Source: Flavobacteriales bacterium (lineage in GTDB: Bacteria > Bacteroidota > Bacteroidia > JACJYZ01). Taken from it: 64,000 nt of DNA. The translations under genes were made by a program, and so were the position numbers. Below, piece after piece: positions 19,237-38,709 of the stretch (position 1 is the first letter of the stretch; each line of letters starts with the position of its first letter). The stretch spans positions 49,937 to 113,936 of the forward strand of contig JACJYZ010000003.1 in NCBI GenBank assembly GCA_020635855.1, read 5' to 3'. A model generated the notes under the pieces. That model made no database searches. It saw only the letters and a list, made by a program, of their open reading frames with translations, and was not told the DNA's origin.

Positions 19237-19360
19237 TGGGAATTTTATGATTTGGTTTAGTGGTGATGAGGTTCTGGCCCGTACCATTGTTCTGATGTTA
19301 ATAAGTATTTGATTCCACCATGGATTTACGCTCTCCGAAATTCTATTTTTGTTCGGAGAG

Positions 19361-20644: not shown

Positions 20645-21038
20645 GCTTTTTGAGGGTAATATCTCTTTTCTTCTTCATCAGATCACATTCCCACACGGTA
20701 ATGATTTTCCAACCACTTCTTTTTAGCTGAGTGCAGCTTTCAGCGTCCTTGGCCTTGTTGCGGTTGATTTTGTCCAGCCACCACTGGGTACGAGTCTTCG
20801 GAACAACAAAGTACCTGCACCCGTCATGACCATGCCAGAAACAGCCATGAATAAAGATTACTGTGTTGTGTTTTTTCAGGATGATATCAGGCTTTCCAGG
20901 CAGGAGCTTATCGTGTAACCGGTAACGGAAACCGTTTGCATGAAGAAACCGGCGTACGAGCATTTCGGGTTTTGTGTCCTTGCCCCTGATCCGGCTCATG
21001 TTGTATGAGCGTACTTCAGGTTCATGAACATCAGTCAT
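20622..21038 (-). CDS. vsr: Very-short-patch repair endonuclease Vsr
   Basis: HGCFWHGH motif and [12 protein letters not shown]. 138 aa. Overlaps the convergent dcm 3' end by 23 nt. Confidence 0.9.
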
Positions 21039-22249
21039 CAGATTTGTTGTTGTTTTTCCCGAACTACATCAATAAAATCAGAAAGTGTTATCAGGTGCGC
21101 ACGTTGTTCTTCGGTGTACGTTTCCATAAGTGGTTGCGGAAGCACAAGCTGTAGATTTTGGGCAATCATTTCATCCGTTTGGTTTCTGCTTATAGCAGGT
21201 TCCAGTGTAATCAGATGTTTGTTGTTAATCCGGTCAGCTTCAGCCAAAACCTGCCGCCACCGTTCTTTTGCAGAAGTTTTTACGCCAAGCATGGTCAGCA
21301 ACTGCGCAGTAAAATCTGCATTGTGATAATGGTCTATACCGGGAAAAAGAAAATCAGGCTTATTATTCCGTTCTGTTTTTGCACCCTTTGCATATTGAAT
21401 TCCACTGGCATCAAAGATATGCGCCAAATGATTCTCAAAAGCAAAACCTGCTCTTGATTTTCTTCTATTCTGAACGCTTAAAGAGAAGGAAATAAATTCA
21501 TCCACATCGGTTCCCTGTGCACCGAAACCCTGTTGCAATTTTTTGGCCACTATGTGCTTTTCGAGCGTTTTAAAAAGCAGTTCTTCCCGTTCTAGCCAAG
21601 CCATCAGGGTATCGTCAGGTTCTTCAATAGGAGATACGTCTGTTAGTGTCGAGCGTGCATAAGCAGAAAACTGGGCAGTTGTTGGGAAGCCCACACCAAA
21701 CAAGTTTATTAGCTGTTCAAGAAAATCGGGCGCAGTGTCAGGCACTTCAAAGCCCAGTGATGTAATAATGTATTGCCCTGCGAAGTTCAGTTGTGTATCT
21801 GCTCCGGTAAAGTCACGAATAACAAATTTTGAACCCGCTTCCTCAAGACCGAAAAGCCATAGTAGCTGCTGCTCGGATGTGGAACCTTGCGGGGCAACAA
21901 TTACTGCCAGTTTGTTTTCACCGGTTTGTCCAATTACGACCAGGTCACCGGCAACCGCTATATCAATGACTGGATTAGTAGAATAGTAAAGTCGATATTC
22001 GGTTCTTGAGGGGTGATTCTCTCGGGCATCGTACCATGTTAGTGTTCCGGATTCTTTAATAATTTGTTCTTCGTCATCAGTCAGGTAAATAAAATGTCCC
22101 TGAAAGTTGATTCTCTCTGAACCGAAGATTTCCCTAAACCCGGATATACCATTGAATTCATGTTGATTGGAAACATCCGGAGCTACTTCAACATCACTAA
22201 GTCTTTTTGCTCCGATTCCAGTGAAATATTGTGATAATGGACTTGGCAT
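21038..22249 (-). CDS. EcoRII-family (type IIE) restriction endonuclease
   Basis: 403 aa. C-terminal half aligns by eye to EcoRII as recalled from memory (VDEFISFSLSVQNRRKSRAG...NKKPDFLFP...ERWRQVLAEADRI versus EcoRII VDEFIALANSVSNRRKSRAG...NKKPDFLFP...DRWRQILNEADKI). N-terminal domain shares KRLS.../YY motifs of the EcoRII-N effector domain. Confidence 0.8.
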   Translation of the reverse strand: MPSPLSQYFTGIGAKRLSDVEVAPDVSNQHEFNGISGFREIFGSERINFQGHFIYLTDDEEQIIKESGTLTWYDARENHPSRTEYRLYYSTNPVIDIAVAGDLVVIGQTGENKLAVIVAPQGSTSEQQLLWLFGLEEAGSKFVIRDFTGADTQLNFAGQYIITSLGFEVPDTAPDFLEQLINLFGVGFPTTAQFSAYARSTLTDVSPIEEPDDTLMAWLEREELLFKTLEKHIVAKKLQQGFGAQGTDVDEFISFSLSVQNRRKSRAGFAFENHLAHIFDASGIQYAKGAKTERNNKPDFLFPGIDHYHNADFTAQLLTMLGVKTSAKERWRQVLAEADRINNKHLITLEPAISRNQTDEMIAQNLQLVLPQPLMETYTEEQRAHLITLSDFIDVVREKQQQI

Positions 22250-23010: not shown

Positions 23011-24816
23011 TTAGAGCGGTGTACGCCCGGCATTGACGGAACGGCGCAGGTTTGAGGTGAACTCACCGAAGTCGGTTTGGATGATGCCTTTCTGACGGAG
23101 CTTCTTCATGATCTCTTCCGGCGTGCCCACGTCCGTAATACGGCATTGGTTCCGCGGATTTGCGGTGGAGAGGTTTCTTATGTCATGCGCATCTACCAGC
23201 CCGAGGCGTCCGTCATTCATCACCAGCACCACGATGGATGGATACACCTTGGTCAGTTTCATGCGATGCACGTCATTGGGCACCACGCCCCTCGGGAAAA
23301 GGTACAGTGTGTACGATTTGCGGATGGGCAGTTCATCGTTTCCGGGAGATACGTATTGTGTCACGTATTCTTCCTGTCCTTTCAATACCTGGTCGCAATT
23401 CCACAGTCCCAACCGGTCGGCGGAAAACGTTCTGCGTACCAGGTAGTCGGTCTCAAGGGCGGTGCCCCTGTTCTTTTCACTCAGGATCTCTGCCACATTC
23501 GGTCCGGGTACAATGCCTGCCTTGGCGCCCTTGTAATCGCGGTAGAGGTCCCCACAGGTTTTGTCGGCATAGGGTCCATCCAGCGAGGGGAACAAACGCA
23601 CCGATACCTGGCTGGCAATCTCGCTCCTGGATGAATCCGGTTCCAGGCCGTTGTTCTTTTTCAGGAAAACCAGGGTGAGGTAATCCGTGGGGACGGACAC
23701 ATCATAGGTCACCTCCACATAGTCCCAGAACCGGTAGATGTAGTTGCCACCTTTGAAATCATTGGCCAGCAGAGATTCGAAGAATTCCAGGTCCTGTCCG
23801 GGTTCCTGCACCGATTGGTCGTAATGCCATGCCAGTCCGCGCAGCGCAGCAAAACCCCGGTTGCGCCATTCGATGTTGGTGAAGGTGAAGTCGTAGGATT
23901 TTCCCGCTTTGGAATGCCCCTTCTTTTTGAACCGTTTGATCACGGGTTTGTAGTTCACCAGGTTCTGCACGCCGATCCCCAGGGCCGAATCCGCTTCCAG
24001 AGGAGTGATGGTACTTGCCGTTGCGGCATCCGTCCGCACATCTCCGCGTTCATTCGTCCGGTCGGAGGTTTTGGTTGTCACCGGTTCTTCGGTGTTTTCA
24101 AATACCGTTACGTTGTCTTTGCCTTCAAGCGTCCACAGGCTGCGCTGCTCATCGAGGTGGTACAGGTTGAATGCGGTTTCGCTTTGATCCGATACCATGT
24201 CCACTTCAATGGCTTTTCCAGGTAGCATCTGCAAGGGGTTGTCATTCATGTCGAATGCGCGGATCTCCATCATGCCCGCTGATACCAGGGACATCCGCTC
24301 ACCCAGGGTGTCGTACTCCATGGGTACACCACCGGCAAACACCGATAGGGCATCGTGGAATTCACGGTACTTTAAAACCACCTTGCCGTCATAGACGCGG
24401 GATGAAGCATCCAGGAACGCACCTGCAGGAATGTGCAATACCGTGCCCGTGCTGTGTGTGATCTCTGCGCCTTTGCTTGCCTCCAGGGTATAGGAACCGA
24501 ACGGCACGTCCCATGCTGAAACGGGTGGCTTGAGACAGGCCGGAATGCTTTCGGCAGAGGAGTCAACCATGGCAACTACCGCCTTATCTGTAGGCAGGGT
24601 TTCAGGTGTACGATGCATTTGGGTGATCAGCAAAACGACCCCTGCGCTCAGCGCCAATCCGCCCAACACAACTTTGGCCAGGGATGAAAGGCCTTTTCCT
24701 TTCGGGGTGCCTGCTTGACCCTGGGCCATGGTCCGGTTCACCAGCGAATCAAAATTCATGGTTGAATCCACATCCGCTTTGCCCGGCATTTTTCTGTTCC
24801 TGATGATTTTATTCAT
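23011..24816 (-). CDS. Membrane-anchored protein co-transcribed with an ECF sigma factor (putative anti-sigma/sensor)
   Basis: ATGA overlap with the sigma gene stop (24813-24816). Cytoplasmic N-terminus of about 55 aa, single TM LAKVVLGGLALSAGVVLLI, then ~530-aa extracytoplasmic domain without recognisable family motif. Confidence 0.45.
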   Translation of the reverse strand: MNKIIRNRKMPGKADVDSTMNFDSLVNRTMAQGQAGTPKGKGLSSLAKVVLGGLALSAGVVLLITQMHRTPETLPTDKAVVAMVDSSAESIPACLKPPVSAWDVPFGSYTLEASKGAEITHSTGTVLHIPAGAFLDASSRVYDGKVVLKYREFHDALSVFAGGVPMEYDTLGERMSLVSAGMMEIRAFDMNDNPLQMLPGKAIEVDMVSDQSETAFNLYHLDEQRSLWTLEGKDNVTVFENTEEPVTTKTSDRTNERGDVRTDAATASTITPLEADSALGIGVQNLVNYKPVIKRFKKKGHSKAGKSYDFTFTNIEWRNRGFAALRGLAWHYDQSVQEPGQDLEFFESLLANDFKGGNYIYRFWDYVEVTYDVSVPTDYLTLVFLKKNNGLEPDSSRSEIASQVSVRLFPSLDGPYADKTCGDLYRDYKGAKAGIVPGPNVAEILSEKNRGTALETDYLVRRTFSADRLGLWNCDQVLKGQEEYVTQYVSPGNDELPIRKSYTLYLFPRGVVPNDVHRMKLTKVYPSIVVLVMNDGRLGLVDAHDIRNLSTANPRNQCRITDVGTPEEIMKKLRQKGIIQTDFGEFTSNLRRSVNAGRTPL

Positions 24817-25412
24817 GACGGTTGTTTCGTTGTTAGTTTGGCGCATTCTTTCCGTATGCGCTGCAGGATCCGTTGCATTTTCATTTTCACTGCGGCTTCG
24901 GTGGTTCCCAGGATATCTGCTATTTCTTTGAAGGGACGTTCCTCGAAGTACCGCATCTCAATCAGCCACGTGGCTTCCCCATTCAGGCTTTTGATGATCT
25001 GAAGCATGGCATACATCCTGTCATCTGCTTCTGACCCCGCTTCTGCAGCCAGGGTCACCAACCGGCTGTCGTCGTCAATGCTGATGATGCGGTGCCGGCT
25101 CTTCTTCCTGAAATTTGTATTCATTTCGTTCAGGGCGATCCTGTACAGCCATGCGGAGAATGGTAGTCCGCGGTCCTTGTATTGGTGGATCCGGGTCATC
25201 GCTTTATAAAACACTTCCGCCGTTACATCGGTGGCTGTTTCCATGGCATCGCAGCGACGAAACACAAACCGGAAGATGGCATCGTAGTATTTTCTGTAAA
25301 GGGGCTCAAAGTTCCGGATGTCTTCACGCGCGGCGGCAACAAGGTGGCTTTCAGCTTCGATGTCGACAGCGGTCATGTGGTATTTGGCAGTGAGCGTCAT
25401 GGTGGCTTTCAT
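24813..25412 (-). CDS. ECF-type RNA polymerase sigma-70 factor
   Basis: Region 2 EPLYRKYYDAIFRFVFRRCDAMETATDVTAEVFYKAMTRIHQYKDRGLPFSAWLYRIALNEM. Region 4 EERPFKEIADILGTTEAAVKMKMQRIL. Alternative start at 25400. Confidence 0.85.
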   Translation of the reverse strand: MKATMTLTAKYHMTAVDIEAESHLVAAAREDIRNFEPLYRKYYDAIFRFVFRRCDAMETATDVTAEVFYKAMTRIHQYKDRGLPFSAWLYRIALNEMNTNFRKKSRHRIISIDDDSRLVTLAAEAGSEADDRMYAMLQIIKSLNGEATWLIEMRYFEERPFKEIADILGTTEAAVKMKMQRILQRIRKECAKLTTKQPS

Positions 25413-25639
25413 GTTACCCTAATGTCGCAGGAAGAAAAAGGTAACGCTGAAGGCAAAATACCGGTATAAGTCCGGTATTTTATCTGGCACACCGGATTTT
25501 TATGTGAATCCGGCTAAAAACCCTTGTAAAACGTAACAATCCGCGTAAATCACGTACAAATCCGTAAACACATTCCGCTAGACACCTGCGGAGTGTTGGA
25601 AGACCCGAAGATGAAAAGTTTGCGTCCATAGATATCGTT

Positions 25640-28600
25640 ATGTGTAAAAAATACCTTTTATCCCTCCTTTCGTGTTTTGTCGGATTCGGAGCGTTGTACG
25701 CGCAAACCGGCCCCGGAGGTGTTGGTGATGCATCAACGAACATCGTTTGGCTGAGGGCCGACGATCTCTCTGCCAGCCCCGTGTCTGCCTGGTCAGATCA
25801 GTCGGGCAATGGCAATGACATGTCGCAGGGCAATGCCACCTATCAACCCACATGGGTGGATGGGGTTTTGAATGGCAAACCCGTGCTGCGCTTCGACGGT
25901 GCCAATGATGATCTGGATGGGCCCGCTACCAATACCCTTCTTGGCGGAGGCATAGATGACATTACCATCATCACTGTTTTTCGTACTTCCTCCTCTTCCA
26001 AGGGGTACCTTTCGGCATTGAAAAGAGATGGTGGTACCAGTTCGCTGTATTCCATTGACATCAATTCAAACGCCGGATCGGGTTCCGGAGGTTATGCCGG
26101 ATACGTAACCAGGAATGACGCCAATTCAGCTCACAACTGGATTACTTACAACGGTGGGTACAATGATGGCGGTGGCCACATCCTGGTGGGATGGGTCAAC
26201 GGTGCAAATAAAGAACTTTTCATGGACGGAACTTCCCGTGGTACCGATGCGAACGGGATGCAGAACATTTCCTCGAACACAGGATTGTTTACCATCGGCG
26301 GTTCGGCTGCTGCAAGCAACAACTACAACGGGGACGTGGCGGAATACATCATGTTCACCTCCGCCATCAATGATGCCCAACGCATCATTATCGAAAACTA
26401 CCTGGCCTCCAAATACGGCCTCACCATTGCCAATGATTATTTTACCAGCGATGCTACACATTCCAATGAGCTGGCCGGTATCGGACAGGAAGATGCATCC
26501 AACATACACGCGGATGCCGAATCCGGGGGTGTCCTGGAGGTGAGTTCTCCCTCGGATTTGGGCGACGGTGAATACCTGCTCTTTGCACATGACAACGGTT
26601 CCATTGCCGCATGGACCACCACCGAGGCACCTCATGCAGGCGACAACATGCAACGCCTGACCCGCGAGTGGATCATGAATGAGACGGGTGATGTGGGTAC
26701 GATCACCGTTACAGTGGACAATACGCTTCTTCCGGCACTCCCGGCTGAATATACCGATTACTACCTTCTGGTGGATGACGACGGGGATTTTTCCAGCGGC
26801 GCTACCGAATACCTGCTGAGTCCCGTTGGAGGCAGCGACTATCAAGCCACAGGTGTGGATGTAGCTGACGGAAGCTATGTCACCATCGCTGTGGTGCGGC
26901 CGGAGATCGACTTTACCATTACCGCCGATGACGATTTCGAAACGGCGGGCGCCGTCAATATTCAGGTTGAACTGAATTTCGCCATCAGCTCGGATGCAAC
27001 GGCGGTCTTTACGGAGAACGGCGGAAGCACCGCCACATCCGGTGCATTGAATGATTACACCCTCTCTGCAGGTCCGGTTACCATATCGGCAGGTACCACC
27101 ACAGCCAATATAACCCTTACCCTGAATGACGATGTGGACCTGGAAGATGACGAAACCGTGATCCTGGATCTCAGCGGACCCACTGTGGCCCAACTCGGAG
27201 ATGACGTTCAGTTCACCTATACCATTCACGATGATGACAACCCGAGAAAAGTAGGATTCACCGCGGCGGGTTCTTCGGGCGATGAAAGTGTGAATCCGTT
27301 CAGTCTGACCGTGCAGAGTACCACTGCCAGCTCATCAGACATCACCGTGAACTATACCGTAACAGGTGGTACCGCCACCGGGGGAGGAGTTGACTATACC
27401 CTGGCCTCCGGCACCGCAACCATTCCGGGTGATAATTCGAGTATCTCCACCACCATCGATATTGCCATTAATGAAGATATTTTGGATGAGGTGGATGAGA
27501 CCATCGAGATCACTTTATCCACGCCCGGCAATTGCAACCTGGATGCCGGGAATACAGTCTACACATACACCATAACAGATAACGACAATCCTCCGGTTGT
27601 CCAGTTTTCCTTCACCACAACCGATGCTTCTGAAGCGGTAAGCCCGGGGCAGGTGGAAGTGTCGTTATCCGGCATCACCGGGCAGGATGTTCAGGTTTCC
27701 TATACGGTGGCGGATGGTACGGCGACAGGAAGCGGATCGGATTATACCCTGGCAGATGGTACCCTGACCATTCCGGCGGGAAGCACATATGGTTACATCA
27801 CACCAGTGATCGTGGACGACAGCAACATCGAGCCTTCCGAAACTTTTACCATCACTTTGTCTGCCGGTCCTACCAATGCAACGCTGGGTGCGAACACGGT
27901 GAACACCTATACCATAGGCGACAACGACGACACCGGATTCACCGGACCCGGAGGGGTGGGAAATGCAACCAACAATGTGTTGTGGCTGCAAGCCGATGAC
28001 CTGTCTGCAAGCCCGGTTTCTTCCTGGGCGGATCAATCCGGTAACGCCAATGACATGAGTCAGGGCACAGGAGGTTATCAGCCGTTGTGGGTGGATGGCG
28101 TGATCAACGGCAGGCCCGTGATCCGTTTCGACGGCAGCGATGATGTGCTGAATGGCACAGCATCCAATACATTGCTGGGAGGCGCCATCGAAGACATCAC
28201 TGTGCTCACGGTTTTCAGGACGTCCTCTACCTCCAGGGGATACCTGTCGCAGTTAAAACGTGATGGGGGTACCAGTTCCCTCTATTCCATCGATATCAAC
28301 TCAACCGGGGGCAGTGCAAGCGCCGGGTATGCCGGTTTTCTAACCAGGGATGATGCCAATGCCAACCACTACTGGCTGGATTACAACGGGGGTTATAATG
28401 ACGGTGATGGTCACATCCTGATAGGATGGGTGGATAACGCCAACCGGGAATTATTCATAGACGGTACCTCGCGCGGAACCGATGCCAACGGCATGCAAAG
28501 CGTATCCAGCAACACCGGGGCCTTCACCCTTGGCGGAACTTCATCCGGTGGAACCCCATACACCGGAGATGTAGGGGAGTACATCATTTATACCATGGCG

Positions 28601-31600
28601 TTGAACAGTGCCCAGCGAATCATTGTGGAGAATTACCTGTCATCCAAATACGACATTGCGGTGGCAAACGATTATTACAGTCACGATGTGTCGTATGAGG
28701 AAGACGTAGCGGGTATCGGCCGGGAAGATGCATCCAATGAACATACCGCTGCTCAGTCGGCCGGTATACTGAAGGTCTCAAGTCCATCCGGAATGGGTGA
28801 CGGAGAGTACCTGTTGTTCGGTCATAACAATGGGTCAATTGCTTCATGGACCACCACGGAAGCCCCCAACTCGGGAACCAACATCCAACGTCTGGCCAGG
28901 GAATGGCAGGTAGATCAAACAGGAAATGTGGGTACCGTTACGGTTACCGTTGATTCCACATTGCTGCCCGCCCGCCCGTCCGAATACTCAGAGTATTTTC
29001 TTCTGGTGGATGGCAACGGTGATTTCAGCAGCGGTGCCACCCAGTACAAGATGAGCAATGTCAGCGGCGCCAACTTTGAAGCTTACGGTGTGACACTTGC
29101 CGACAACGATTACATTGCCATTGCGGTGAAGCGCCCGACCATAGGGTTCACACTTGCAAGTTCAGGAACCTTCGAACCCAATGGTCCCGCAACCGTGCAG
29201 GTTCAACTCAACATGGCGCTGGCCCATAACGTTACCGTTGACTATGCCGTCAATGGCAGCAGCACGGCAACCGGTGGAGGAGTGGATTACACCTTGTCGG
29301 CGGGAACCGTAACCATTACAGCAGGTAACACCACGGCCAACATCAACATTCCCCTGGTGGATGACATCCTGGTTGAGAATTCCGAAACGATCATCCTGGA
29401 ACTTTCCAACCCTTCTTCGGGAATCACCCTCGGAACCAATACCACCCATACTTTCTCCATCAACGACGATGACAATGCGCGCAAGATCAACTTCACCGCA
29501 TCGTCCTCTTCAGGTGCGGAAAGTGTGAATACGGTTACATTAACGGTACAGGCAACCACGGCCAGTTCATCCGATATCACGGTGGATTACAGCGTGACGG
29601 GCGGTACAGCCACCGGCGGGGGAACCGACTATACATTAACCAGCGGCACGGCCACCATCCCCGGCGATAACTCAAGCACTACCACCACATTCGATATCGC
29701 CATCAACGAAGATGTCCTGGATGAAGATGACGAAACCATCATCATTACCCTCACCAATCCCACCAACGGAAACCTGGCTGCCACCAACACATCCTACACC
29801 TACACCATTACGGACAATGACAATCCGCCGGTTGTTCAGTTCACCAGCACCACTACCAGTGCTTCGGAAGATACAAGTCCGGGAGCCATTGAGGTCAGTC
29901 TTTCCGCCCCATCAGGTCAGGATGTGGTCGTAAGTTATACCGTTGCCGATGGTACAGCCACGGGCGGTTATGTGGATTACTACCTGGCCGACGGCTCACT
30001 GACCATCCCCGCCGGAAGTTCCGTTGCCAATATAGGTCCGGTCATTGTTGACGATGCCAATGTGGAGGGAGGGGAAACATTCACGGTGACTTTATCCGCC
30101 GGTCCGACGGGCGCCACATTGGGTGCGAATACCACCAATACATATACCATCAGTGATAATGACAATGCGATGGGCTTCACAGGCCCGGGTGGCGTTGGTG
30201 ATGAAGATGACAACGTGCTGTGGTTACGTGCCAGCGACCTGTCGGCAAGTCCGGTTTCATCCTGGACGGACAAGTCGGGAAACAGCAACGACATGAGCCA
30301 GGGAACAGGAGGATACCAACCCACATGGGTAAACAGCGTGATGAACGGACAACCGGTGATCCGGTTCGACGGCAGTGACGATGTGCTCAACGGGGCTGCC
30401 TCAAACACGTTGCTTGGAGGGGCAATTCAGGATGTTACCACTATCACGGCTTATCGTACAAGTTCCACACAACGAGGTTATTTATCGGCATTGAAGCGAG
30501 ATGCCGGAACCAGTTCGCTCCTTTCCATCGACATCAACTCGAACGGAGGAAGTTCGAGCACCGGGTATGCGGGTTTCTTATCCAGGGATGATGCCAACGC
30601 GAGCCACCAATGGCTCAACTACAACGGTGGATATAACGATGGAAACGGTCACATCATGGTGGCATGGATTGATGATGCCAACCGTGAATTGTTTATGGAT
30701 GGAACATCCCGCGGCACCGATGCCAACGGCATGCAAAGCGTATCCAGCAACAGCGGTACGTTCACCATAGGCGGGGCAGCATCCGGAAGTACCCCGTACA
30801 GTGGTGACGTAGGGGAGTATATCATATATACAAAAGCCCTGAATTCCGCGCAGCGTATCATTGTCGAGAACTACCTTTCATCCAAATTCGGAATTGCGGT
30901 CGCCACCGATGTATATAACAAGGAAGCCCTGAGTAAGTATGAGGTGGCTGGTATAGGTCGCGAGGATGTCAGCAATCAACACACCGCCGCCCAGTCGGCC
31001 GGTATTCTCAAGTTTTCAAGTGCTTCCGATCTGGGTGACGGTGAATACCTGTTGTTCGGTCATAACAACGGATCAGTGGCCTCATGGACCACCACTGAAG
31101 CACCCAACTCCGGTACCAACATCCAACGACTGGCCAGGGAATGGCAGATTGCGGAAACCGGCGATGTAGGTACCGTCACCATCACCGTGGATACGACTTT
31201 ATTACCCGCCCGTCCTTCCGGCTATTCGGTATACACCGTACTTGTGGACGCCGATGGTAACTTCAGCAACGGCGCTACCCAGTACAAAATGACCCAGTCT
31301 TCCGGCGCCAACTTTACCGCCACGGGTGTGGATGTATCCGATGGCAATTTCGTGGCAATTGCTGTTGTTCGTCCGGTGATTCAATTCTCGAACACCATCA
31401 GCAGTACCTTCGAACCGAACGGGCCGGCCCTGGTTCCGGTTACCCTGAACTACGCCCTTCAGTCAAACGTTACGGTTGATTATACCATCACCGGGGGAAC
31501 GGCAACGGGGGGAGGCACCGACTATGTTCTTTCCAACGGTACCCTGACCATCACCGCAGGTAATACTTCTGCCAATATCAGCATCACCCTGGTGGATGAT

Positions 31601-34600
31601 ATCGTATCGGAGTCGGATGAGACCATTACCCTTGCGCTGTCAAACCCCTCATCAGGTCTTGTTCTGGGCAGCAATGCATCCCATACGTTCACGATCAATG
31701 ACGATGACAATGCCAGAAAGATCAGCTTCACTTCCACTTCTTCCTCGGGAGACGAAAGTGTTACCCCTGTAACGCTCACCGTTCAGGCTACTTCCCCGAG
31801 TTCGTCCGACATTACGGTTGACTACATTGTCAGCGGTGGTACGGCCACCGGAAGCGGCACGGATTACACGCTTGGATCCGGAACAGCAACCATTCCCGGG
31901 GATAACAGCACAACAACCATTACATTTGATGTGGCCATTGTGGATGATGGTGTGGATGAATCCGATGAAACAATCATCATCCAGTTGGTGAATCCGACCA
32001 ACGGAAACCTGGCCGCATCCAATACAAGCTACACGTATACCATTCAGGACAACGATGCGGAACCTACGGTGGAGTTTGCCAGCACCACCACATCCAAATC
32101 GGAATCAGCAGGCACGATGAACATCGAGGTTGAGCTTTCGGCAACAAGCGGTCAGGATGTGACCGTAGACTACACTGTGGCAGACGTTTCGGCAACCGGT
32201 GGCGGAACGGATTACATATTGGCTGATGGAACACTGACCATTCCTGCAGGTGATGCAAGCGCCTACATTTCAGCCACCCTGATTGACGACGCGACGGTGG
32301 AAGGCCTGGAAGAATTTACCGTTACCCTGTCCAATCCCTCGGGAGCCACACTTGGCGGCAATACCGTAAACACGTGCTACATCACTGATGATGACAACGA
32401 AGGATACATAGGTCCGGGCGGTGTCGGTGATGCGAACAACAACGTGATCTGGCTGAGGGCGGATGACTTGTCTGCAAGTCCTGTTACATCCTGGTCCGAT
32501 CAATCCGGTAACGGCAACGATGTGAGCCAGGGTACCGCCGCCAATCAACCTACCTGGGTGAACACCGTGGTGAATGGATTTCCCGTGGTCAGGTTTGATG
32601 GGGCGAATGATGTGCTGAATGGTCCTGCAACCAATGCGTTGATAGGTGCCAACCAGGATGATCTGACGGTGATCACAGTATTCCGGACTACGTCAACCGC
32701 ACGCGGTTATCTCAGCACCCTCAAGCGAGATGCGGCCACCAGTACCCTGTTCGGGGTAGATATCAACTCGAACGGCGGAAGCGCAAGCTCCGGTTATGCT
32801 GGTATCCTCTCCAGGAATGATGCCAATAGCGCTCACAACTGGCTCACGTATAATGGAAGCTATAACAGCGGCACCGCACATATTCTCACGGGCCGGATTG
32901 AAGGTACGAGCAAGGAAGTTTTTATAGACGGAACCTCCAGGGGCTCTGATGCCAACGGATTGCAAAGTGTTTCCACCAATACGGGAGTGCTTACGATCGG
33001 AGGCGCTGCGTCCGCAAGTACACCCTACAACGGAGATGTAGCGGAATACATCATATATACCACGCCTTTGAATACCGCCCAGCGCATTATCGTGGATAAC
33101 TACCTGGCAGCAAAATATGGTCTCACCATTGCCAATGATAAATACACCGAAGGTTCTTATTACTATGAAGTGGCGGGTATAGGAAGAGCCGATGCCTCCA
33201 ATCTTCACAATGCCGCCCAGTCGGCAGGGATGTTTCTTGTGAACAATGCCAGCTCCCTGGGAGATGGCGACTACCTGCTCTTCGGCCATAACAATGGCGG
33301 AGTCGCCAGTTGGACCACCACGGAGGCACCCAATGCAGCTACAGAAAGGGTTGCACGGGAGTGGATGTTTGGTGAAACCAATGATGTAGGTACGATCAAG
33401 GTCACTGTGGACCTCTCATCTTTCGCAGCCATGCCCGGTGGTTACAATGCCTACCTGCTGATGATGGATACGGATGGTGACGGAGACTTCACCACTGGTA
33501 CACCAACCTATTATCCGCTGTCACTCGTGAGCGGAAGTACCTATGAGGCAACCGGCGTGGATGTGGCCAGTAACTATTATGCCACCATAGGTGTGGTGCA
33601 GAACATTAGCCAAACTTCCGGGGATTTCGATGATGCCGGTACGTGGTTGTCCGGAATCGTGCCCGGTTCCGGTCAGGATGCGATCATTGACAACGGCGAT
33701 GTGGTCACACTGACAGCCAATCAAACCGTAGGATCGGTGACCATCAATGGCACCGGTACACTCAACCTGGGTTCTTACACCCTCAGCATAGACAACGGTA
33801 CCATATCCAACAGCGGAACATTCAATGCAGGCACAGGTACGGTGAGATACAATGCCAGTGCAGCGCAGTGTGTGAGCGGACTCACATACTACAACCTGAT
33901 CCTGGGTGGCAGCGATACAAAAACATTGTGTGGTGATATCGCAGTAGGTCATGACCTCACCATCTCGTCCGGCGTGACCATGGACGTTTCCGGAAGCAAT
34001 TATCAGGTGACGGTAGCCGGCAATTGGTCCAACAGCGGAACCTTCACATCACAGAGCGGTACGGTGACGTTCGACGGCGGCTCAAACCAGACATTGTCCG
34101 CCTCCACAACCGAAGCATTTAACAGCCTGGTGGTGAACAAAGGAGGCGGAGACCTCGTGCTCTCCAGAAGCATAAGCGTATCGGGCACATTGACGATGAC
34201 CGCAGGTAATATCAACCTGGGGTCCTATGACCTCTCCATTGGTACTGCCGGTTCTATTTCCGGTGGAAGTTCCACCAGCTACATAGAAGCCAATAGTGTG
34301 GGCAAAGTGATCAAGTATTATGCGGCGGTTCCGGCTGCAACGGTTGACTTCCCTATCGGAGATGATGATGATTATTCACCGTTTTCATTCACACTGAATG
34401 ACGGGACACTTGGCGGTGGTGCATGTGTATCCATCAACCTGCGGGATTCCAAACACCCGAATATGCCGGCAACCGTTACTTACATATCCAGGTACTGGAC
34501 CGTGACACCAACCAATATATCCTGTAACGGCAGTTGCGATGCAGGACCGGGTGATATTGATTACGACATGAGTTACGTGTACACCAATGCCGACGTGAAC

Positions 34601-35323
34601 GGGAACGAGGCCAATCTGTTGCCCATGAAGTATTCCGGTGGTGCATGGACCACGGATGGGAGTGTGACCGTGGCTACCAATACCCTCAGCTGGAGTGGTG
34701 TGACCTCATTCAGTGACATGTCCGGAGGTTTGGATGGGGATGTGCTTCCCATCGAATTGCTTAGCTTTTCAGCTGAGCCGGCAGAGAATATGGTGAACCT
34801 GACCTGGATCACAGCGTCGGAAATCAACAATGACTATTTCACGGTTGAACGGTCTGCGGATGGAAAAACCTTCCGGCCCGTGGCAAAAGTAGACGGTGCC
34901 GGTAACAGCAACCGGTTGCTGCAATACTTTACAAAGGATGAGGCCCCACTGCCCGGCATCTCTTATTACCGACTGAAGCAAACCGATTATAATGGTGAGG
35001 TCTCCTATTCCGCCATCGTTGCCGTTCAATTTGATAACGATAAGAATTCCATGGGGCCCGTTAACATACAGGTATATCCGAACCCGGTTCGTAGTGGCGA
35101 AAAGTTTTACTTGGCTTTCGACGGATTGAAAGGAGAGAAAGAAGTATTGATCGTGTTGGTGGATGCCTACGGTCATGAATTATATACCAAAGCAGTGGTA
35201 ACCAACAACAAAGGTGGATTGCTGGAGGTGATCGATATACAGGGCAGGGTCTCACCCGGCATCTATTTTGTGATCGCCAGTTCGGAACAAACCATCGTGA
35301 ACCGCAAAGTGGTGTTCAAGTAG
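25640..35323 (+). CDS. Giant (3227 aa) T9SS-secreted adhesin-like protein: 4 tandem LamG-like modules, 9 Calx-beta domains, unique C-terminal region, T9SS CTD
   Basis: Signal peptide MCKKYLLSLLSCFVGFGALYAQ. Four modules start GPGGVGDxxxNVxWLRADDLSASPV...DQSGNGNDxSQG...QPTWV...NGxPVxRFDG (LamG/ConA-like jellyroll) at about aa 23, 770, 1515 and 2255. Each of modules 1-3 continues with three Calx-beta domains (GGTATGGGxDYTL.SGT.TIPAG...DDxxxExDET). The C-terminal region (aa ~2650-3150) is Gly/Thr-rich with beta-helix-like repeats. CTD ...IYFVIASSEQTIVNRKVVFK. Confidence 0.8.
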   Translation: MCKKYLLSLLSCFVGFGALYAQTGPGGVGDASTNIVWLRADDLSASPVSAWSDQSGNGNDMSQGNATYQPTWVDGVLNGKPVLRFDGANDDLDGPATNTLLGGGIDDITIITVFRTSSSSKGYLSALKRDGGTSSLYSIDINSNAGSGSGGYAGYVTRNDANSAHNWITYNGGYNDGGGHILVGWVNGANKELFMDGTSRGTDANGMQNISSNTGLFTIGGSAAASNNYNGDVAEYIMFTSAINDAQRIIIENYLASKYGLTIANDYFTSDATHSNELAGIGQEDASNIHADAESGGVLEVSSPSDLGDGEYLLFAHDNGSIAAWTTTEAPHAGDNMQRLTREWIMNETGDVGTITVTVDNTLLPALPAEYTDYYLLVDDDGDFSSGATEYLLSPVGGSDYQATGVDVADGSYVTIAVVRPEIDFTITADDDFETAGAVNIQVELNFAISSDATAVFTENGGSTATSGALNDYTLSAGPVTISAGTTTANITLTLNDDVDLEDDETVILDLSGPTVAQLGDDVQFTYTIHDDDNPRKVGFTAAGSSGDESVNPFSLTVQSTTASSSDITVNYTVTGGTATGGGVDYTLASGTATIPGDNSSISTTIDIAINEDILDEVDETIEITLSTPGNCNLDAGNTVYTYTITDNDNPPVVQFSFTTTDASEAVSPGQVEVSLSGITGQDVQVSYTVADGTATGSGSDYTLADGTLTIPAGSTYGYITPVIVDDSNIEPSETFTITLSAGPTNATLGANTVNTYTIGDNDDTGFTGPGGVGNATNNVLWLQADDLSASPVSSWADQSGNANDMSQGTGGYQPLWVDGVINGRPVIRFDGSDDVLNGTASNTLLGGAIEDITVLTVFRTSSTSRGYLSQLKRDGGTSSLYSIDINSTGGSASAGYAGFLTRDDANANHYWLDYNGGYNDGDGHILIGWVDNANRELFIDGTSRGTDANGMQSVSSNTGAFTLGGTSSGGTPYTGDVGEYIIYTMALNSAQRIIVENYLSSKYDIAVANDYYSHDVSYEEDVAGIGREDASNEHTAAQSAGILKVSSPSGMGDGEYLLFGHNNGSIASWTTTEAPNSGTNIQRLAREWQVDQTGNVGTVTVTVDSTLLPARPSEYSEYFLLVDGNGDFSSGATQYKMSNVSGANFEAYGVTLADNDYIAIAVKRPTIGFTLASSGTFEPNGPATVQVQLNMALAHNVTVDYAVNGSSTATGGGVDYTLSAGTVTITAGNTTANINIPLVDDILVENSETIILELSNPSSGITLGTNTTHTFSINDDDNARKINFTASSSSGAESVNTVTLTVQATTASSSDITVDYSVTGGTATGGGTDYTLTSGTATIPGDNSSTTTTFDIAINEDVLDEDDETIIITLTNPTNGNLAATNTSYTYTITDNDNPPVVQFTSTTTSASEDTSPGAIEVSLSAPSGQDVVVSYTVADGTATGGYVDYYLADGSLTIPAGSSVANIGPVIVDDANVEGGETFTVTLSAGPTGATLGANTTNTYTISDNDNAMGFTGPGGVGDEDDNVLWLRASDLSASPVSSWTDKSGNSNDMSQGTGGYQPTWVNSVMNGQPVIRFDGSDDVLNGAASNTLLGGAIQDVTTITAYRTSSTQRGYLSALKRDAGTSSLLSIDINSNGGSSSTGYAGFLSRDDANASHQWLNYNGGYNDGNGHIMVAWIDDANRELFMDGTSRGTDANGMQSVSSNSGTFTIGGAASGSTPYSGDVGEYIIYTKALNSAQRIIVENYLSSKFGIAVATDVYNKEALSKYEVAGIGREDVSNQHTAAQSAGILKFSSASDLGDGEYLLFGHNNGSVASWTTTEAPNSGTNIQRLAREWQIAETGDVGTVTITVDTTLLPARPSGYSVYTVLVDADGNFSNGATQYKMTQSSGANFTATGVDVSDGNFVAIAVVRPVIQFSNTISSTFEPNGPALVPVTLNYALQSNVTVDYTITGGTATGGGTDYVLSNGTLTITAGNTSANISITLVDDIVSESDETITLALSNPSSGLVLGSNASHTFTINDDDNARKISFTSTSSSGDESVTPVTLTVQATSPSSSDITVDYIVSGGTATGSGTDYTLGSGTATIPGDNSTTTITFDVAIVDDGVDESDETIIIQLVNPTNGNLAASNTSYTYTIQDNDAEPTVEFASTTTSKSESAGTMNIEVELSATSGQDVTVDYTVADVSATGGGTDYILADGTLTIPAGDASAYISATLIDDATVEGLEEFTVTLSNPSGATLGGNTVNTCYITDDDNEGYIGPGGVGDANNNVIWLRADDLSASPVTSWSDQSGNGNDVSQGTAANQPTWVNTVVNGFPVVRFDGANDVLNGPATNALIGANQDDLTVITVFRTTSTARGYLSTLKRDAATSTLFGVDINSNGGSASSGYAGILSRNDANSAHNWLTYNGSYNSGTAHILTGRIEGTSKEVFIDGTSRGSDANGLQSVSTNTGVLTIGGAASASTPYNGDVAEYIIYTTPLNTAQRIIVDNYLAAKYGLTIANDKYTEGSYYYEVAGIGRADASNLHNAAQSAGMFLVNNASSLGDGDYLLFGHNNGGVASWTTTEAPNAATERVAREWMFGETNDVGTIKVTVDLSSFAAMPGGYNAYLLMMDTDGDGDFTTGTPTYYPLSLVSGSTYEATGVDVASNYYATIGVVQNISQTSGDFDDAGTWLSGIVPGSGQDAIIDNGDVVTLTANQTVGSVTINGTGTLNLGSYTLSIDNGTISNSGTFNAGTGTVRYNASAAQCVSGLTYYNLILGGSDTKTLCGDIAVGHDLTISSGVTMDVSGSNYQVTVAGNWSNSGTFTSQSGTVTFDGGSNQTLSASTTEAFNSLVVNKGGGDLVLSRSISVSGTLTMTAGNINLGSYDLSIGTAGSISGGSSTSYIEANSVGKVIKYYAAVPAATVDFPIGDDDDYSPFSFTLNDGTLGGGACVSINLRDSKHPNMPATVTYISRYWTVTPTNISCNGSCDAGPGDIDYDMSYVYTNADVNGNEANLLPMKYSGGAWTTDGSVTVATNTLSWSGVTSFSDMSGGLDGDVLPIELLSFSAEPAENMVNLTWITASEINNDYFTVERSADGKTFRPVAKVDGAGNSNRLLQYFTKDEAPLPGISYYRLKQTDYNGEVSYSAIVAVQFDNDKNSMGPVNIQVYPNPVRSGEKFYLAFDGLKGEKEVLIVLVDAYGHELYTKAVVTNNKGGLLEVIDIQGRVSPGIYFVIASSEQTIVNRKVVFK
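25700..32410 (+). repeat. Three consecutive ~2.24-kb tandem nucleotide repeats inside the giant gene (module starts ~25700, 27940, 30180, 32410)
   Basis: Long runs of near-identical nucleotide sequence between modules, for example ggtaccagttcgctgtattccattgacatcaattc versus ggtaccagttccctctattccatcgatatcaactc versus ggaaccagttcgctcctttccatcgacatcaactc. Confidence 0.8.
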
Positions 35324-35349
35324 TTGGCGCCATCGCATCCGATAAAAGA

Positions 35350-35385
35350 AAAAGCCTTCCGTCGACAGACGGAAGGCTTTTTCGT
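35350..35385. terminator. Bidirectional rho-independent terminator between the convergent giant gene and M4 protease gene
   Basis: AAGCCTTCCGTC-gaca-GACGGAAGGCTT perfect 12-bp hairpin, followed by TTTTCG on the plus strand and preceded by an A-run (a U-run on the minus strand). Confidence 0.8.
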
Positions 35386-35403
35386 GAAAGAGGGTTCTGA
35401 CGC

Positions 35404-38400
35404 TTACAACCCTTTCACAAGACGAATGACTTTCTGCGCCTGGGTGTCGGTAGCGATCAAGCGTACCATGTACACGCCGTCGGGCAGTGCGGTCAGGCTG
35501 ATGGTGTGTGTGCCTGTTTGCAGGTTGCGTTTCACGATCACGGTCTCACCGATCAGGTTGATCACTTCCATCTGAAGGGTACCCTTGCCTTCGATGCTCA
35601 GGTTCACCTGATCACCGGCGGGGTTGGGGAAAAGCCTGAGGGCCACATCCTGGTCTAGCTGTGAGAGTCCTACATTCAGCACCGTCAGTGGTGAAGACTC
35701 ACCGGTACAACCGTTACCGTCTGTCACCTTCACGGTGTACACGCCGTTCACGTTGGGAATGTAGGTATCGTTGGTAGCACCGCTGATCATGGCGCCATCA
35801 CGGAACCACTGATAAGAATGTGTACCTGTAATACCCGAGATGATCAGGGTGCCGTTGCCATCCTGTGTGATGGTTGGGGTCGGCAGCGGGTTCACGCTGA
35901 TGGATGTGCTGGTGTTGCCCGTGCATCCGCCGCTGGCGGTTACCGTTACACTGTAAGTGGTATTGGCAGTCGGGTTCACAGTAACAGTCTGGGTGGTTGC
36001 ACCTGTAGACCATTGGTAAGCGGTATATCCGCTACCGGCATCCATGTTCACCGCATCGCCTGCACACACCGTTGAATTGTCTGCGGAGATGGTCGGGTTC
36101 ACACCGTTGGGATCCACCGTAGCCACCACTTCCACGCGCTCGCTCACGCACTCCTTCTCCTGGATCTCCCAGTCGTAGAAATAGTAGTAGTATCCATCCG
36201 AACCGGCATTGGTACCTGTGATGGACACCACACCTCCTACATTGAGGGGGAAGGTACTGCCGGCATCATTCCGGTAGAGGTCCACGTCTGAAGGCGTGGT
36301 GGTCGGATCACCGGTACACTTGATGAAATAATTGGTACCGGGTTGCAGGTAGAAGTCGAGGGTCACGCGGCTCTCACCCGCAGGGATGGTAACGGTTTTG
36401 GAAGCATATACCGGACCGGTATCACTGCCTTGCAGCACCTCGATCAGGCGGTCGCCTGCGGTGTTGGCATACACCTTCACGGTGCGCAGGTATACCGATG
36501 AAGTTACATCGAAGAACAAACCGCGCAGGTCATTGGCGGTGAAATAGCCACCCGTACCGATGGTGTTATCGGCCGGTCCGCCTTTCACCTTTGCCTTCTC
36601 ATCCACGGCCTCCACCCAGTAACTGGTGGTGTTGGACACCGAAGGTGAGTAGGTGCCACCGGTGTACAGCAGGGTGCCCCCGTTGGCAGCGTCGTACCAA
36701 TTGTACTTGTTGCCTGAACCGGAAGCGGACAGGTTCACCGTACCTGAGCCACAGATCTGGTCGCCCTGGGTGGTGGGCGGACTGAGCAGGCTGATGGTCA
36801 CATAAGACGTCTTGGTGTCGGTGTTTTGTCCATAGGCATTGGTAGCGGTCAGCTTCACGGTGAAGGTACCGCTGGCGGTGTAGGTGTGAGACGGGTTTTG
36901 TTGTGTGGAGGAAGCGCCGTCACCGAAATCCCATGCCCATGAAGTAGGGGCGAAGGTACTCTTGTCGGTGAACTGCACCTTGCCGTCGCAGCTGGCGGTT
37001 ACGTCGGCCACGAAATCGGGTTCGGGGGCCACGTTGCACTGAACGGGATCACCCACACCCACTGCATACCATGCATTGGCGGTTTGCGCATACTCATTGG
37101 AGCAGTCGCCGTAGAGATCCTTGGCAGATTCCAGGGCGTAATAGCGGGCGTCGGAATAATCCGAGTTGGCGCCCAGGTAAACGGTCAGGTTGCGGAAGGA
37201 GATGTGTCCTGCCTTTTCAATACCGATGCCGGTTACATTATAGGAATCACCGTTGTCGTTTGATCCTGATTCACCTTCCGAGAGTACATAAAACCAGTGG
37301 TTCTGCACACCGCTGTTTGTGTGCACACCGCCGTTGTCGTTCGAGCTGGTTTCCCAATAGGTTCCTTTATAGGTATCGGGGTTGGAATAGGTATTCGGGT
37401 TGGAAAGGCTGCGGATGGCACCGATGTCGGCCCCCATCAGCCAGTCGGCTTTGCCGGGAGTGGCGTACCATTCCACGAGGGTTCCGAAGATGTCGCTGAA
37501 GGATTCGTTCAGGGCGCCTGATTCATAAGAGTAAACCAGGTTGGCACTTTCGGAAGTAACGCCGTGTCCCACTTCATGTGAACCGATGTCGATGGTGGTG
37601 AGCGGGTTGTTGTTGCCGTCGCCGTAGCGCATGTAGCTGCCGGTCCACTGGGCGTTGTTCCAGTTGCTGTCCCAATGCACATAACCGATCAGCTTGAGGC
37701 CGTTTCCGTCAATGCTGTTCTGGTTTTCCCGGTCTTTCAGGAAGTCGTACATCTTTTCGGCGGCGAGGTGCGCATTGGTGGCAGCATCATCCATGTTGGC
37801 CGTAGATGTCCAGTTGTTATCGGAATCGGTGAAGTCAACAGCGCCGCCGGTGGAGGTGCCGTTCTGGGCATTCATGGTTTGGATACCATTGCCGCGTCCG
37901 GTTTCACGCAGGCGGTAAGAGCCGTTGTAACTATCGGTGATGATGGTTTGCGTACCATCGTAGCGGGTGTTGGCAGAACCTGTGGCGTCTACCGAGTGGA
38001 TCAGTTCATTCTTTGCAATGACCTTGCCGGTTTGGGCATCCACATAGATCTGTGCACGTGAATCGGGTTCCAACGACCAGATCTCGTAGCGGTAAGCCAG
38101 GCGGAATCCGTTGGTGGGATTGAAGTCGGGCGCCACGATCCACAGTTCGGCTTTGGGTTCGAAACTGAGATCGGGTTTTTCCAGGGCTTTTCTGAGGCTT
38201 TCCACTTCAGCCTTATCTTCCCACATGTACCTTTTACCTCCCACGAAATTAAGGGCATCGGAAAGGCTTTGTTCTTCGGAGATGGCGGGCACCACGTTCA
38301 GGTCCTTTACATCCATGAACAGTCCGTTCACAGAGCTGACCACACCGCCTTCGAGGTGGGCGCGGAACTCACCGCCCTGCACCGGGATGCCCTTGTACAG

Positions 38401-38709
38401 TTGCTGGTACTGGATGTGGGTCATGCCGATCCGGTCGGTCTTGGTCTTCACTTGTTGGAAATCGTCTTCGGGTCGGGCCGCCACGGTTGACATGACAGCT
38501 GCTTTGGGAGACTGTTGCTTGTGTCGTGCAGATGTACGATCAAATCGTACAAACAGGGGTTTGGATGACCTTTTCTGGTCGAGTCGGATGGTCTCCGCAT
38601 CAGGGAGGATCGATGCTGCCGCCTGGCCGCTCAATACCTGCGCCTGAAGTCCTGTCCAATTGAGGAGAAATATAGCACACACTATTCCTCCTGCTACCTT
38701 TCTTTTCAT
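35404..38709 (-). CDS. M4 (thermolysin-like) zinc metalloprotease with propeptide, C-terminal Ig/PKD-like domains and T9SS CTD
   Basis: Signal peptide MKRKVAGGIVCAIFLLNWTGLQAQ. Zinc site HEVGHGVTSE. Third ligand and substrate-site GALNESFSDIFG (thermolysin HExxH...ExxxD). Long Thr/Ser/Gly-rich beta-domains follow. CTD LFPNPAGDQVNLS...VYMVRLIATDTQAQKVIRLVKGL. Confidence 0.85.
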   Translation of the reverse strand: MKRKVAGGIVCAIFLLNWTGLQAQVLSGQAAASILPDAETIRLDQKRSSKPLFVRFDRTSARHKQQSPKAAVMSTVAARPEDDFQQVKTKTDRIGMTHIQYQQLYKGIPVQGGEFRAHLEGGVVSSVNGLFMDVKDLNVVPAISEEQSLSDALNFVGGKRYMWEDKAEVESLRKALEKPDLSFEPKAELWIVAPDFNPTNGFRLAYRYEIWSLEPDSRAQIYVDAQTGKVIAKNELIHSVDATGSANTRYDGTQTIITDSYNGSYRLRETGRGNGIQTMNAQNGTSTGGAVDFTDSDNNWTSTANMDDAATNAHLAAEKMYDFLKDRENQNSIDGNGLKLIGYVHWDSNWNNAQWTGSYMRYGDGNNNPLTTIDIGSHEVGHGVTSESANLVYSYESGALNESFSDIFGTLVEWYATPGKADWLMGADIGAIRSLSNPNTYSNPDTYKGTYWETSSNDNGGVHTNSGVQNHWFYVLSEGESGSNDNGDSYNVTGIGIEKAGHISFRNLTVYLGANSDYSDARYYALESAKDLYGDCSNEYAQTANAWYAVGVGDPVQCNVAPEPDFVADVTASCDGKVQFTDKSTFAPTSWAWDFGDGASSTQQNPSHTYTASGTFTVKLTATNAYGQNTDTKTSYVTISLLSPPTTQGDQICGSGTVNLSASGSGNKYNWYDAANGGTLLYTGGTYSPSVSNTTSYWVEAVDEKAKVKGGPADNTIGTGGYFTANDLRGLFFDVTSSVYLRTVKVYANTAGDRLIEVLQGSDTGPVYASKTVTIPAGESRVTLDFYLQPGTNYFIKCTGDPTTTPSDVDLYRNDAGSTFPLNVGGVVSITGTNAGSDGYYYYFYDWEIQEKECVSERVEVVATVDPNGVNPTISADNSTVCAGDAVNMDAGSGYTAYQWSTGATTQTVTVNPTANTTYSVTVTASGGCTGNTSTSISVNPLPTPTITQDGNGTLIISGITGTHSYQWFRDGAMISGATNDTYIPNVNGVYTVKVTDGNGCTGESSPLTVLNVGLSQLDQDVALRLFPNPAGDQVNLSIEGKGTLQMEVINLIGETVIVKRNLQTGTHTISLTALPDGVYMVRLIATDTQAQKVIRLVKGL

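Follow-up and report, generated by a model that had tools for sequence, protein, structure and literature searches.

A gene of 9.7 kb built from four tandem modules raises two questions: whether its repeats are still gaining and losing copies by recombination, and what a protein so regularly constructed may do outside the cell. The gene occupies positions 25640-35323 (+) of a 64,000-nucleotide stretch of a Flavobacteriales bacterium genome (assembly GCA_020635855.1, contig JACJYZ010000003.1, positions 49,937 to 113,936), hereafter the window. An initial annotation of this DNA described a giant 3227-residue protein of the type IX secretion system (T9SS), made of four tandem LamG-plus-Calx-beta modules, and attributed to it highly similar nucleotide repeats and the role of a Ca2+-dependent surface lectin or adhesin. 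Our results bear out the protein architecture, through an intact reading frame, four GPGGVG module starts and Pfam matches, and overturn the description of the DNA, in which the repeats are old and diverged, not highly similar. The protein is a mid-sized, regular and ordinary member of a large, catalogued and functionally uncharacterised T9SS family.

The gene is a single uninterrupted open reading frame (ORF) with an ATG start and a GC content of 52.9%, against 51.8% for the window. Its 3227-residue product is identical in sequence to NCBI entries MCB0431355.1 and MCB9448393.1, deposited from Flavobacteriales bacterium as 'T9SS type A sorting domain-containing protein', and has a mass of 334 kDa and an isoelectric point of 4.05 (369 Asp and Glu residues vs 111 Lys and Arg). 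The motif GPGGVG marks four module starts, at residues 24, 769, 1515 and 2258, and a direct-repeat search returned three families whose copies start 2235, 2238 and 2229 nucleotides apart. The first three modules are 745, 746 and 743 residues long; the fourth aligns to them over its first ~400 residues only, then runs into a different C-terminal region. The domain order is thus a signal peptide, four units of a LamG-like jelly roll followed by a DUF8202 domain, with three Calx-beta domains after each of modules 1-3, and then a region of G8 and beta-strand repeats; the protein ends with two more beta domains and a T9SS C-terminal domain of type A (Table 1). Antisense ORFs within the gene, such as 26126-27229 (-), reach 367 residues; they are most likely shadow ORFs of a coding frame rich in Gly, Thr, Ser and Asp, and not genes.

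Any two modules share 61-73% of their residues and 61-68% of their nucleotides. Third codon positions agree at 38-44%, compared with the 27% expected by chance from composition, and the Nei-Gojobori method yields synonymous divergence (dS) of 2.2-2.8, or values not computable, with nonsynonymous divergence (dN) of 0.22-0.33 and a dN/dS of ~0.1; the modules are now held distinct by purifying selection. The longest exact string common to any two modules spans 14-37 nucleotides, and Tandem Repeats Finder, run on positions 25000-36000, reported no repeats. Near-identical stretches of DNA between copies, as expected of the recombinogenic tandem repeats of a contingency locus, are absent. RecA-dependent recombination drops steeply in frequency with divergence and requires tens of identical bases; at this nucleotide identity, with dS above 2 and such short exact strings, the modules are very poor recombination substrates, contrary to what had been proposed. 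The same divergence means that the repeats cannot collapse in k-mer or read-overlap assembly, another expectation attached to them initially, and an independent assembly (GCA_020435405.1, contig JAGQZR010000149.1), with 11 differences from the window over 13,363 positions, encodes the identical 3227 residues. The comparison of module number among near-identical strains comprises the window and this second NCBI assembly. A search of metagenome contigs for an exact 32-nucleotide pattern from module 3 gave zero matches.

To place the protein among its relatives, a DUF8202 profile was run against 1.84 billion representative proteins, yielding 4,563 at E ≤ 1e-3 (about 4,500 clusters at 50% identity), some of which (P0243 and P0336) hold 11-14 copies of the domain in ~6,100 residues. 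The best protein-database matches to a single module are 42% identical and mostly belong to proteins of ~610 residues, the commonest form among the first matches, which consist of a signal peptide, one LamG-DUF8202 unit, an LPIEL...SYYRLKQTD domain and a C-terminal domain; some relatives bear precomputed Toxin_R_bind_N or Pentaxin matches. A single-protein scan of species-genome contigs recovered no close relative, and an alignment-based pattern scan did find relatives, with at least 600 matches in 185,579 species genomes. The 78 loci kept from it for a hidden Markov model (HMM) census all come, among the matches listed, from Bacteroidota metagenome-assembled genomes (MAGs). Most complete ORFs among them follow a simple rule, whereby n LamG-DUF8202 units are accompanied by 3(n-1) Calx-beta domains. 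Two units with three Calx-beta domains are found in 20 complete ORFs and three units with six in 2 (both counts among the matches listed); the window protein shares four units and nine Calx-beta domains with L004 and L039, L001 and L021 have five and 12, L012 and L061 six and 15, and L016, a truncated frame of 5047 residues, at least seven and 21. The remaining complete ORFs depart from the rule, as in a protein with 6 units and 13 Calx-beta domains. Modules in relatives thus range from 1 to at least 7, and distant Bacteroidota keep to a pitch of 734-746 residues from one module to the next.

Modules resemble one another more within a protein than between species. Identity among modules is 62-76% within the window protein, 73-89% among modules 1-4 of L001 and 52-68% within L033, against at most 58% between species; modules cluster by protein, with adjacent modules most alike and the terminal module an outlier. 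It follows that old tandem duplications have altered the number of modules, and the pattern fits a lineage-specific, repeated tandem duplication of an internal unit (LamG-DUF8202 plus three Calx-beta domains), which would have been the mechanism that made the modules. The gain or loss of modules invoked by the initial annotation is hence real on an evolutionary time scale, as part of the history of the family, and is not ongoing at this locus. Even the youngest pair of modules seen, modules 2 and 3 of L001, is 87% identical in protein and 75% in DNA, with a longest exact match of 20 nucleotides. Compared with other T9SS type A cargo of Bacteroidota carrying DUF8202, the window protein shares the succession of signal peptide, GPGGVG-LamG, DUF8202, repeated triplets of Calx-beta, LPIEL domain and C-terminal domain, but its modules match theirs at best at 42-58%, and most members have one or two modules and lack the G8 cassette. 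L001 has a last module 58% identical to that of the window protein and the same C-terminal cassette; module 4 of the window protein and module 5 of L001 look orthologous.

The profile scans called for by the initial annotation recovered both Laminin_G_3 and Calx-beta. Pfam cut-offs were 27.6 bits for Laminin_G_3, 27 for Calx-beta, 22.9 for G8 and 27 for PF18962, and the NCBIfam cut-off for TIGR04183 was 23. Laminin_G_3 matches all four modules with 41.2 bits over the whole protein, single copies scoring 19.5-29.5 bits and two of the four exceeding the cut-off alone, and the presence of a LamG/ConA-like domain at the start of each module is further supported by structure prediction. The beta-sandwich reported after it corresponds to DUF8202: precomputed annotation of the identical protein places PF26628:DUF8202 four times, interleaved with Calx-beta, and our own profile, built from alignment A2, also finds four copies. 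This ~150-residue domain had no match in the Pfam and NCBIfam copies that we scanned, which are without the PF26628 model. The AlphaFold2 (AF2) model of the module 4 unit, based on an alignment of 96 sequences, has a mean predicted local distance difference test (pLDDT) of 91.9 and a predicted template modelling (TM) score of 0.93, and fits a packing of LamG and DUF8202 into one rigid two-domain unit. Its conserved polar residues cluster in DUF8202 (AGIG, GH[DN]NG, RxxRxW, an Asp and a DxDxDG-like loop in the alignments), which makes DUF8202 the better candidate for any ligand or active site. The conserved residues of the LamG part are mostly Gly, Trp, Pro and hydrophobic, besides the GPGGVG start, and none is of catalytic type, which favours a non-enzymatic reading of this domain.

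Foldseek comparison of the two-domain model with the Protein Data Bank (PDB) returned as its top 50 neighbours clostridial neurotoxin HC or NTNH receptor-binding domains exclusively (E ~1e-9), lectin-like jelly rolls to which the model superposes with TM 0.36-0.44, a root-mean-square deviation (rmsd) of 14-17 Å and 8-14% identity. From such values it follows that essentially only the jelly roll superposes. The likeness is confined to this part, and the second domain of the window protein is not a beta-trefoil; that assignment, suggested by the HC alignment over both domains, was discarded when the 'S' domain alone gave no trefoil or HCC matches. A jelly-roll fold does not imply lectin activity, and carbohydrate binding by the LamG domain is a prediction. 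DUF8202 alone was modelled as an all-beta domain of 12 strands (pLDDT 96.1), with its invariant His mid-domain, at the end of the fourth strand. No PDB neighbour of this model was found by Foldseek at E ≤ 1e-3. The best neighbours are GAIN domains of adhesion G-protein-coupled receptors (GPCRs), namely BAI2 (8oek; E 0.011, query TM score, TMq, 0.43), BAI3 (4dlo_B; TMq 0.45, rmsd 4.4 Å) and CD97 (8ikj), with TMq of 0.43-0.45 and rmsd of 4.4-5.4 Å over ~130 columns. At this level of similarity, with E 0.011 or weaker and no GPCR proteolysis site (GPS) of the HL/T type before the last strand, DUF8202 does not qualify as a GAIN domain; the resemblance may be one of generic beta-sandwich topology. 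GEVED, a further lead from Pfam, was set aside as too weak (5 of 35 members, best E 0.012). Searches of PDB sequences with phmmer and profiles, using the LamG-S unit, S alone or the whole family, matched the C-terminal domain and returned none for LamG or DUF8202.

The spacers between these units are Calx-beta domains (PF03160). Over the whole protein Pfam reports 363 bits in 8 stretches, and a piecewise scan resolves nine domains, three in each of modules 1-3 as initially described. Eight of the nine score 36.9-68.8 bits; the first, at 22.8, falls under the cut-off and is clearly homologous to its counterparts. Triplet 3 aligns with the tandem CBD1-CBD2 domains of the Na+/Ca2+ exchanger NCX1 (3us9; phmmer E 4e-17), including their acidic DDD and ExxE motifs, which recur in other Calx-beta copies of the protein. 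Given these NCX1-like motifs and the strong acidity of the protein, its Calx-beta domains are likely to bind Ca2+. The homology with the NCX1 domains (3us9, 2dpk and 2fws) extends to the tandem joining of the domains and to the alignment of the Ca2+-site motifs; in NCX1, however, they act as cytoplasmic regulatory sensors, whereas in the window protein they are predicted extracellular spacers, in nine copies arranged as three a-b-c triplets.

Both ends of the protein carry export signals. Read from the translation by eye, the N-terminus comprises MCKKY, a hydrophobic core and a putative YA/Q cleavage site, and family members share the consensus AQTGPGGVG, in which Q is nearly invariant. The mature N-terminus of family members (window positions 25703-25726; alignment A1) is Q-T-GPGGVG straight after the signal peptide, and GPGGVG is also invariant at the internal sites where modules 2-4 start. 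Signal peptidase I substrates of Bacteroidota follow a 'Q-rule', with Q at the mature N-terminus, and the family N-termini fit it. At the other end, the last 578 residues form a cassette common to more than 1,800 T9SS proteins with varied N-terminal parts. It includes the LPIEL domain, which is present in single-module homologs too and has L387, P388, F394, W407, Y447 and D451, among others, invariant in alignment A3; residues ~2906-3135 have no match in the Pfam or NCBIfam copies scanned. The cassette closes with the Por C-terminal domain that had been reported (Por_Secre_tail/TIGR04183, residues 3145-3226), for which PF18962 scores 27.0 bits on the isolated segment and TIGR04183 23.3, both at their cut-offs; the cassette profile also matches solved T9SS C-terminal domains (8glk_D with E 1.3e-9, 8glj_D, 5jvk, mirolase and PG93). 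With its Sec signal and sorting domain, the protein is a T9SS type A cargo by sequence, and its export is predicted. The Gly/Thr-rich region described ahead of this domain is a plausible beta-helix. Residues 2656-2905 are 42% Gly, Thr and Ser, contain a G8 match (residues 2668-2741, 36.9 bits) and show an internal duplication at a 74-residue offset. Matches to beta-helices are weak, with Pectate_lyase_5 at E 0.016 and, for the cassette profile, CEMIP2 at E 0.15 and gp5 at E 0.11, and autocorrelation detected no significant rung periodicity in the G8 region.

The function that we favour, and hold to be fairly probable, is that of an elongated adhesin or glycan-binding protein, multivalent, stiffened by Ca2+ and exported by the T9SS. 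The role of Ca2+-dependent surface lectin or adhesin suggested at the outset is a reasonable one to draw, because acidic Calx-beta motifs conserved with NCX1 occur together with a secretion signal. One paper notes that LamG-like T9SS cargo is in general regarded as related to adhesion (PMC12998431). In the mechanism that we propose, the protein would be exported through Sec, the T9SS would recognise its C-terminal domain and carry it across the outer membrane, and once this domain had been removed, the protein would either be fixed to the cell surface or set free. Ca2+ at the acidic motifs of the Calx-beta domains would stiffen the spacers, four similar heads would be displayed at a fixed pitch of ~740 residues on a C-terminal stalk, and together these heads would have avidity for a repetitive ligand, of which a polysaccharide or the surface of another cell is the likeliest.

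Several of these traits are found in known systems. MpIBP of Marinomonas, SiiE of Salmonella and LapA of Pseudomonas are giant acidic fibrillar adhesins with Ca2+-stiffened beta-sandwich extenders and lectin-like ligand-binding domains. They are substrates of the type I secretion system, and their binding domains are grouped at one tip of a long, uniform stalk, whereas the window protein carries T9SS export signals and repeats its putative binding unit at fixed pitch, with short spacers in between. RemA and SprB of Flavobacterium johnsoniae are large surface proteins exported by the T9SS in gliding Bacteroidota, RemA having a lectin domain and SprB a type B C-terminal domain; no sequence relationship between them and the window protein was detected, and the type of lectin differs.

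The evidence on module divergence bears directly on two alternative accounts of the locus. In a contingency or size-variation locus, the 2.24-kb repeats would recombine often, module number would vary by strain with antigenic or size variation as the outcome, and assembly would be at risk of collapse. The regular period of the repeats and the difference in module number between species speak for such a locus, but saturated dS, low nucleotide identity and short exact matches do not, and neither do two near-identical strains, separated by 11 single-nucleotide differences, that encode the same protein, nor the divergence of even the youngest module pair in L001. We regard this explanation as largely refuted and very unlikely. 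The four-module structure might instead stem from mis-assembled repeats, given that the source is a MAG and that repeats in general can be mis-joined; the modules are too diverged for k-mer collapse, however, the reading frame runs unbroken through 9.7 kb and all modules are intact, the independent assembly yields the same protein, and L004 and L039 carry the same formula of four modules and nine Calx-beta domains, all of which leaves an artefact scarcely credible.

Two further alternatives accept the architecture and concern its use. Were the LamG-like domain or DUF8202 catalytic, as a ConA-fold glycoside hydrolase or lyase or as a new hydrolase, the protein would be a multi-headed, processive machine for polysaccharide degradation. 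GH16, PL7 and comparable enzymes share the ConA-like fold, a His, a Trp, an Asp and two Arg residues are invariant in DUF8202, and a T9SS protease is encoded next door; set against this, no enzyme family was matched in Pfam or NCBIfam, the LamG part lacks a conserved acidic catalytic pair, and conserved polysaccharide-utilisation or carbohydrate-active enzyme neighbours are missing, which makes an enzyme improbable in our estimation. The protein could also be shed upon removal of its C-terminal domain and act as a Ca2+-crosslinked component of a biofilm or floc matrix, rather than as a cell-anchored adhesin. Its extreme acidity and many putative Ca2+ sites are compatible with this role, type A cargo can be soluble, and the record titles of several related MAGs point to samples of sludge or of sediment type; nothing separates such a scaffold from an anchored adhesin, since the binding logic is the same in both, and we rate the released form as unlikely. 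As a long shot, the LamG-DUF8202 pair may be an unrecognised ligand-binding or sensing unit with a GAIN-like second domain, or DUF8202 an otherwise new binding or catalytic fold. The ectodomain of ADGRV1 contains Calx-beta, LamG-pentraxin and GAIN domains, a vocabulary like that of the window protein; in the former case, bacterial proteins with Calx-beta, LamG and DUF8202 would share ancestry with animal adhesion-receptor ectodomains such as this one, and in the latter DUF8202, with its invariant polar cluster and DxDxDG-type loop, would be a Ca2+-dependent glycan-binding or catalytic fold set at a pitch of ~740 residues, reading a periodic polymer.

Several considerations weigh against the multivalent adhesin that we favour. 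Its ligand, Ca2+ binding, secretion and surface location are predictions for every family member, drawn from sequence. The cluster of His, Arg, Arg, Trp and Asp in DUF8202 could be catalytic rather than ligand-binding, and the beta-helix stalk after G8 is no more than plausible. In flavobacteria, cargo with a type A C-terminal domain is frequently set free instead of being anchored, so the 'surface' location of the protein is uncertain. When the ORFs flanking the gene in 79 loci were compared all against all by BLAST, no family occurred in more than 8 of them, and a search for literature on DUF8202/PF26628, or on Calx-beta together with type IX secretion, found none.

Table 1. Features of the giant gene and of its surroundings in the window (strand and supporting evidence as given; aa, residues of the encoded protein).
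Feature	Coordinates	Strand	Basis
510-aa T9SS cargo	16523..18055	-	Por C-terminal domain 45 bits; no other recognisable domain
Dcm-type cytosine methyltransferase	19349..20644	+	
EcoRII-C endonuclease-domain protein	21038..22249	-	
611-aa ORF	23011..24846	-	no family match; one predicted transmembrane helix, aa ~53-77
Extracytoplasmic function (ECF) sigma factor	24813..25412	-	TIGR02937 79 bits
Sec signal peptide (MCKKYLLSLLSCFVGFGALYA/Q)	25640..25705	+	read directly from translation
Module 1 LamG/ConA-like jelly roll, aa 24-268	25709..26443	+	Laminin_G_3 19.5 bits; 62-67% identical to modelled module 4 unit
Module 1 DUF8202 beta-sandwich ('S' domain), aa 269-420	26444..26899	+	precomputed PF26628:DUF8202; HMM census
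Calx-beta triplet 1, aa 421-768	26900..27943	+	Pfam 22.8, 36.9, 62.8 bits
Module 2 LamG + DUF8202, aa 769-1165	27944..29134	+	Laminin_G_3 26.3 bits; DUF8202; alignment
Calx-beta triplet 2, aa 1166-1514	29135..30181	+	Pfam 51.1, 43.0, 57.6 bits
Module 3 LamG + DUF8202, aa 1515-1911	30182..31372	+	Laminin_G_3 29.5 bits; DUF8202
Calx-beta triplet 3, aa 1912-2257	31373..32410	+	Pfam 68.8, 48.2, 67.8 bits; phmmer to NCX1
Module 4 LamG + DUF8202, aa 2258-2655, without Calx-beta after it	32411..33604	+	Laminin_G_3 29.2 bits; AF2
G8 and Gly/Thr/Ser-rich beta-strand repeats, aa 2656-2905, putative beta-helix stalk	33605..34354	+	Pfam G8; composition
Beta-rich domain, aa 2906-3034, FPxG...ISRYW motifs of cassette	34355..34741	+	conserved in >1,800 T9SS proteins
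LPIEL...SYYRLKQTD domain (~100 aa) preceding C-terminal domain in family	34742..35044	+	alignment A3
Type A T9SS C-terminal sorting domain	35072..35320	+	PF18962, TIGR04183
Palindromic terminator (likely), perfect 16-bp stem (GAAAAAGCCTTCCGTC...GACGGAAGGCTTTTTC)	35348..35383	.	between giant gene and convergent M4 protease gene
1101-aa T9SS cargo	35404..38709	-	FTP propeptide, thermolysin-like M4 peptidase, PKD, CHU_C-associated Ig, Por C-terminal domain

The giant gene is monocistronic and separated by a 227-nucleotide gap from the divergent ECF sigma gene, which the 611-aa ORF overlaps and follows; the two form a putative pair of sigma factor and single-pass membrane anti-sigma factor. This pair is not conserved beside homologs elsewhere, and the 611-aa protein is unrelated to the ~600-aa ORFs adjoining the L001 and L002 homologs. 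Downstream, the palindrome is likely to be a bidirectional terminator common to two convergent T9SS cargo genes, the giant gene and that of the M4 protease. GldA is encoded 8 kb from the giant gene, and two other T9SS cargo genes lie within the window; no core T9SS genes were seen in its 64 kb, where GldA and other C-terminal-domain cargo are the only such components. The Dcm-type methyltransferase gene adjoins that of the EcoRII-C protein, and the two probably constitute a type II restriction-modification pair.

Taken alone, the giant protein adds one large T9SS cargo to a family already catalogued through DUF8202, Calx-beta, Laminin_G_3 and Por C-terminal domains. Its analysis illustrates that coding DNA may repeat at a regular period without being prone to recombination or mis-assembly, and that nucleotide identity must be measured. 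Of use beyond this locus are the 3(n-1) Calx-beta rule, the constant pitch of ~740 residues across Bacteroidota and the lineage-specific expansion of modules. DUF8202 combines a confident predicted fold with the lack of a convincing solved-structure neighbour and of any literature, and its family, which numbers more than 4,500 clusters and often supplies the largest proteins in environmental Bacteroidota, would be a sensible choice for a first structure and a first screen for ligands.

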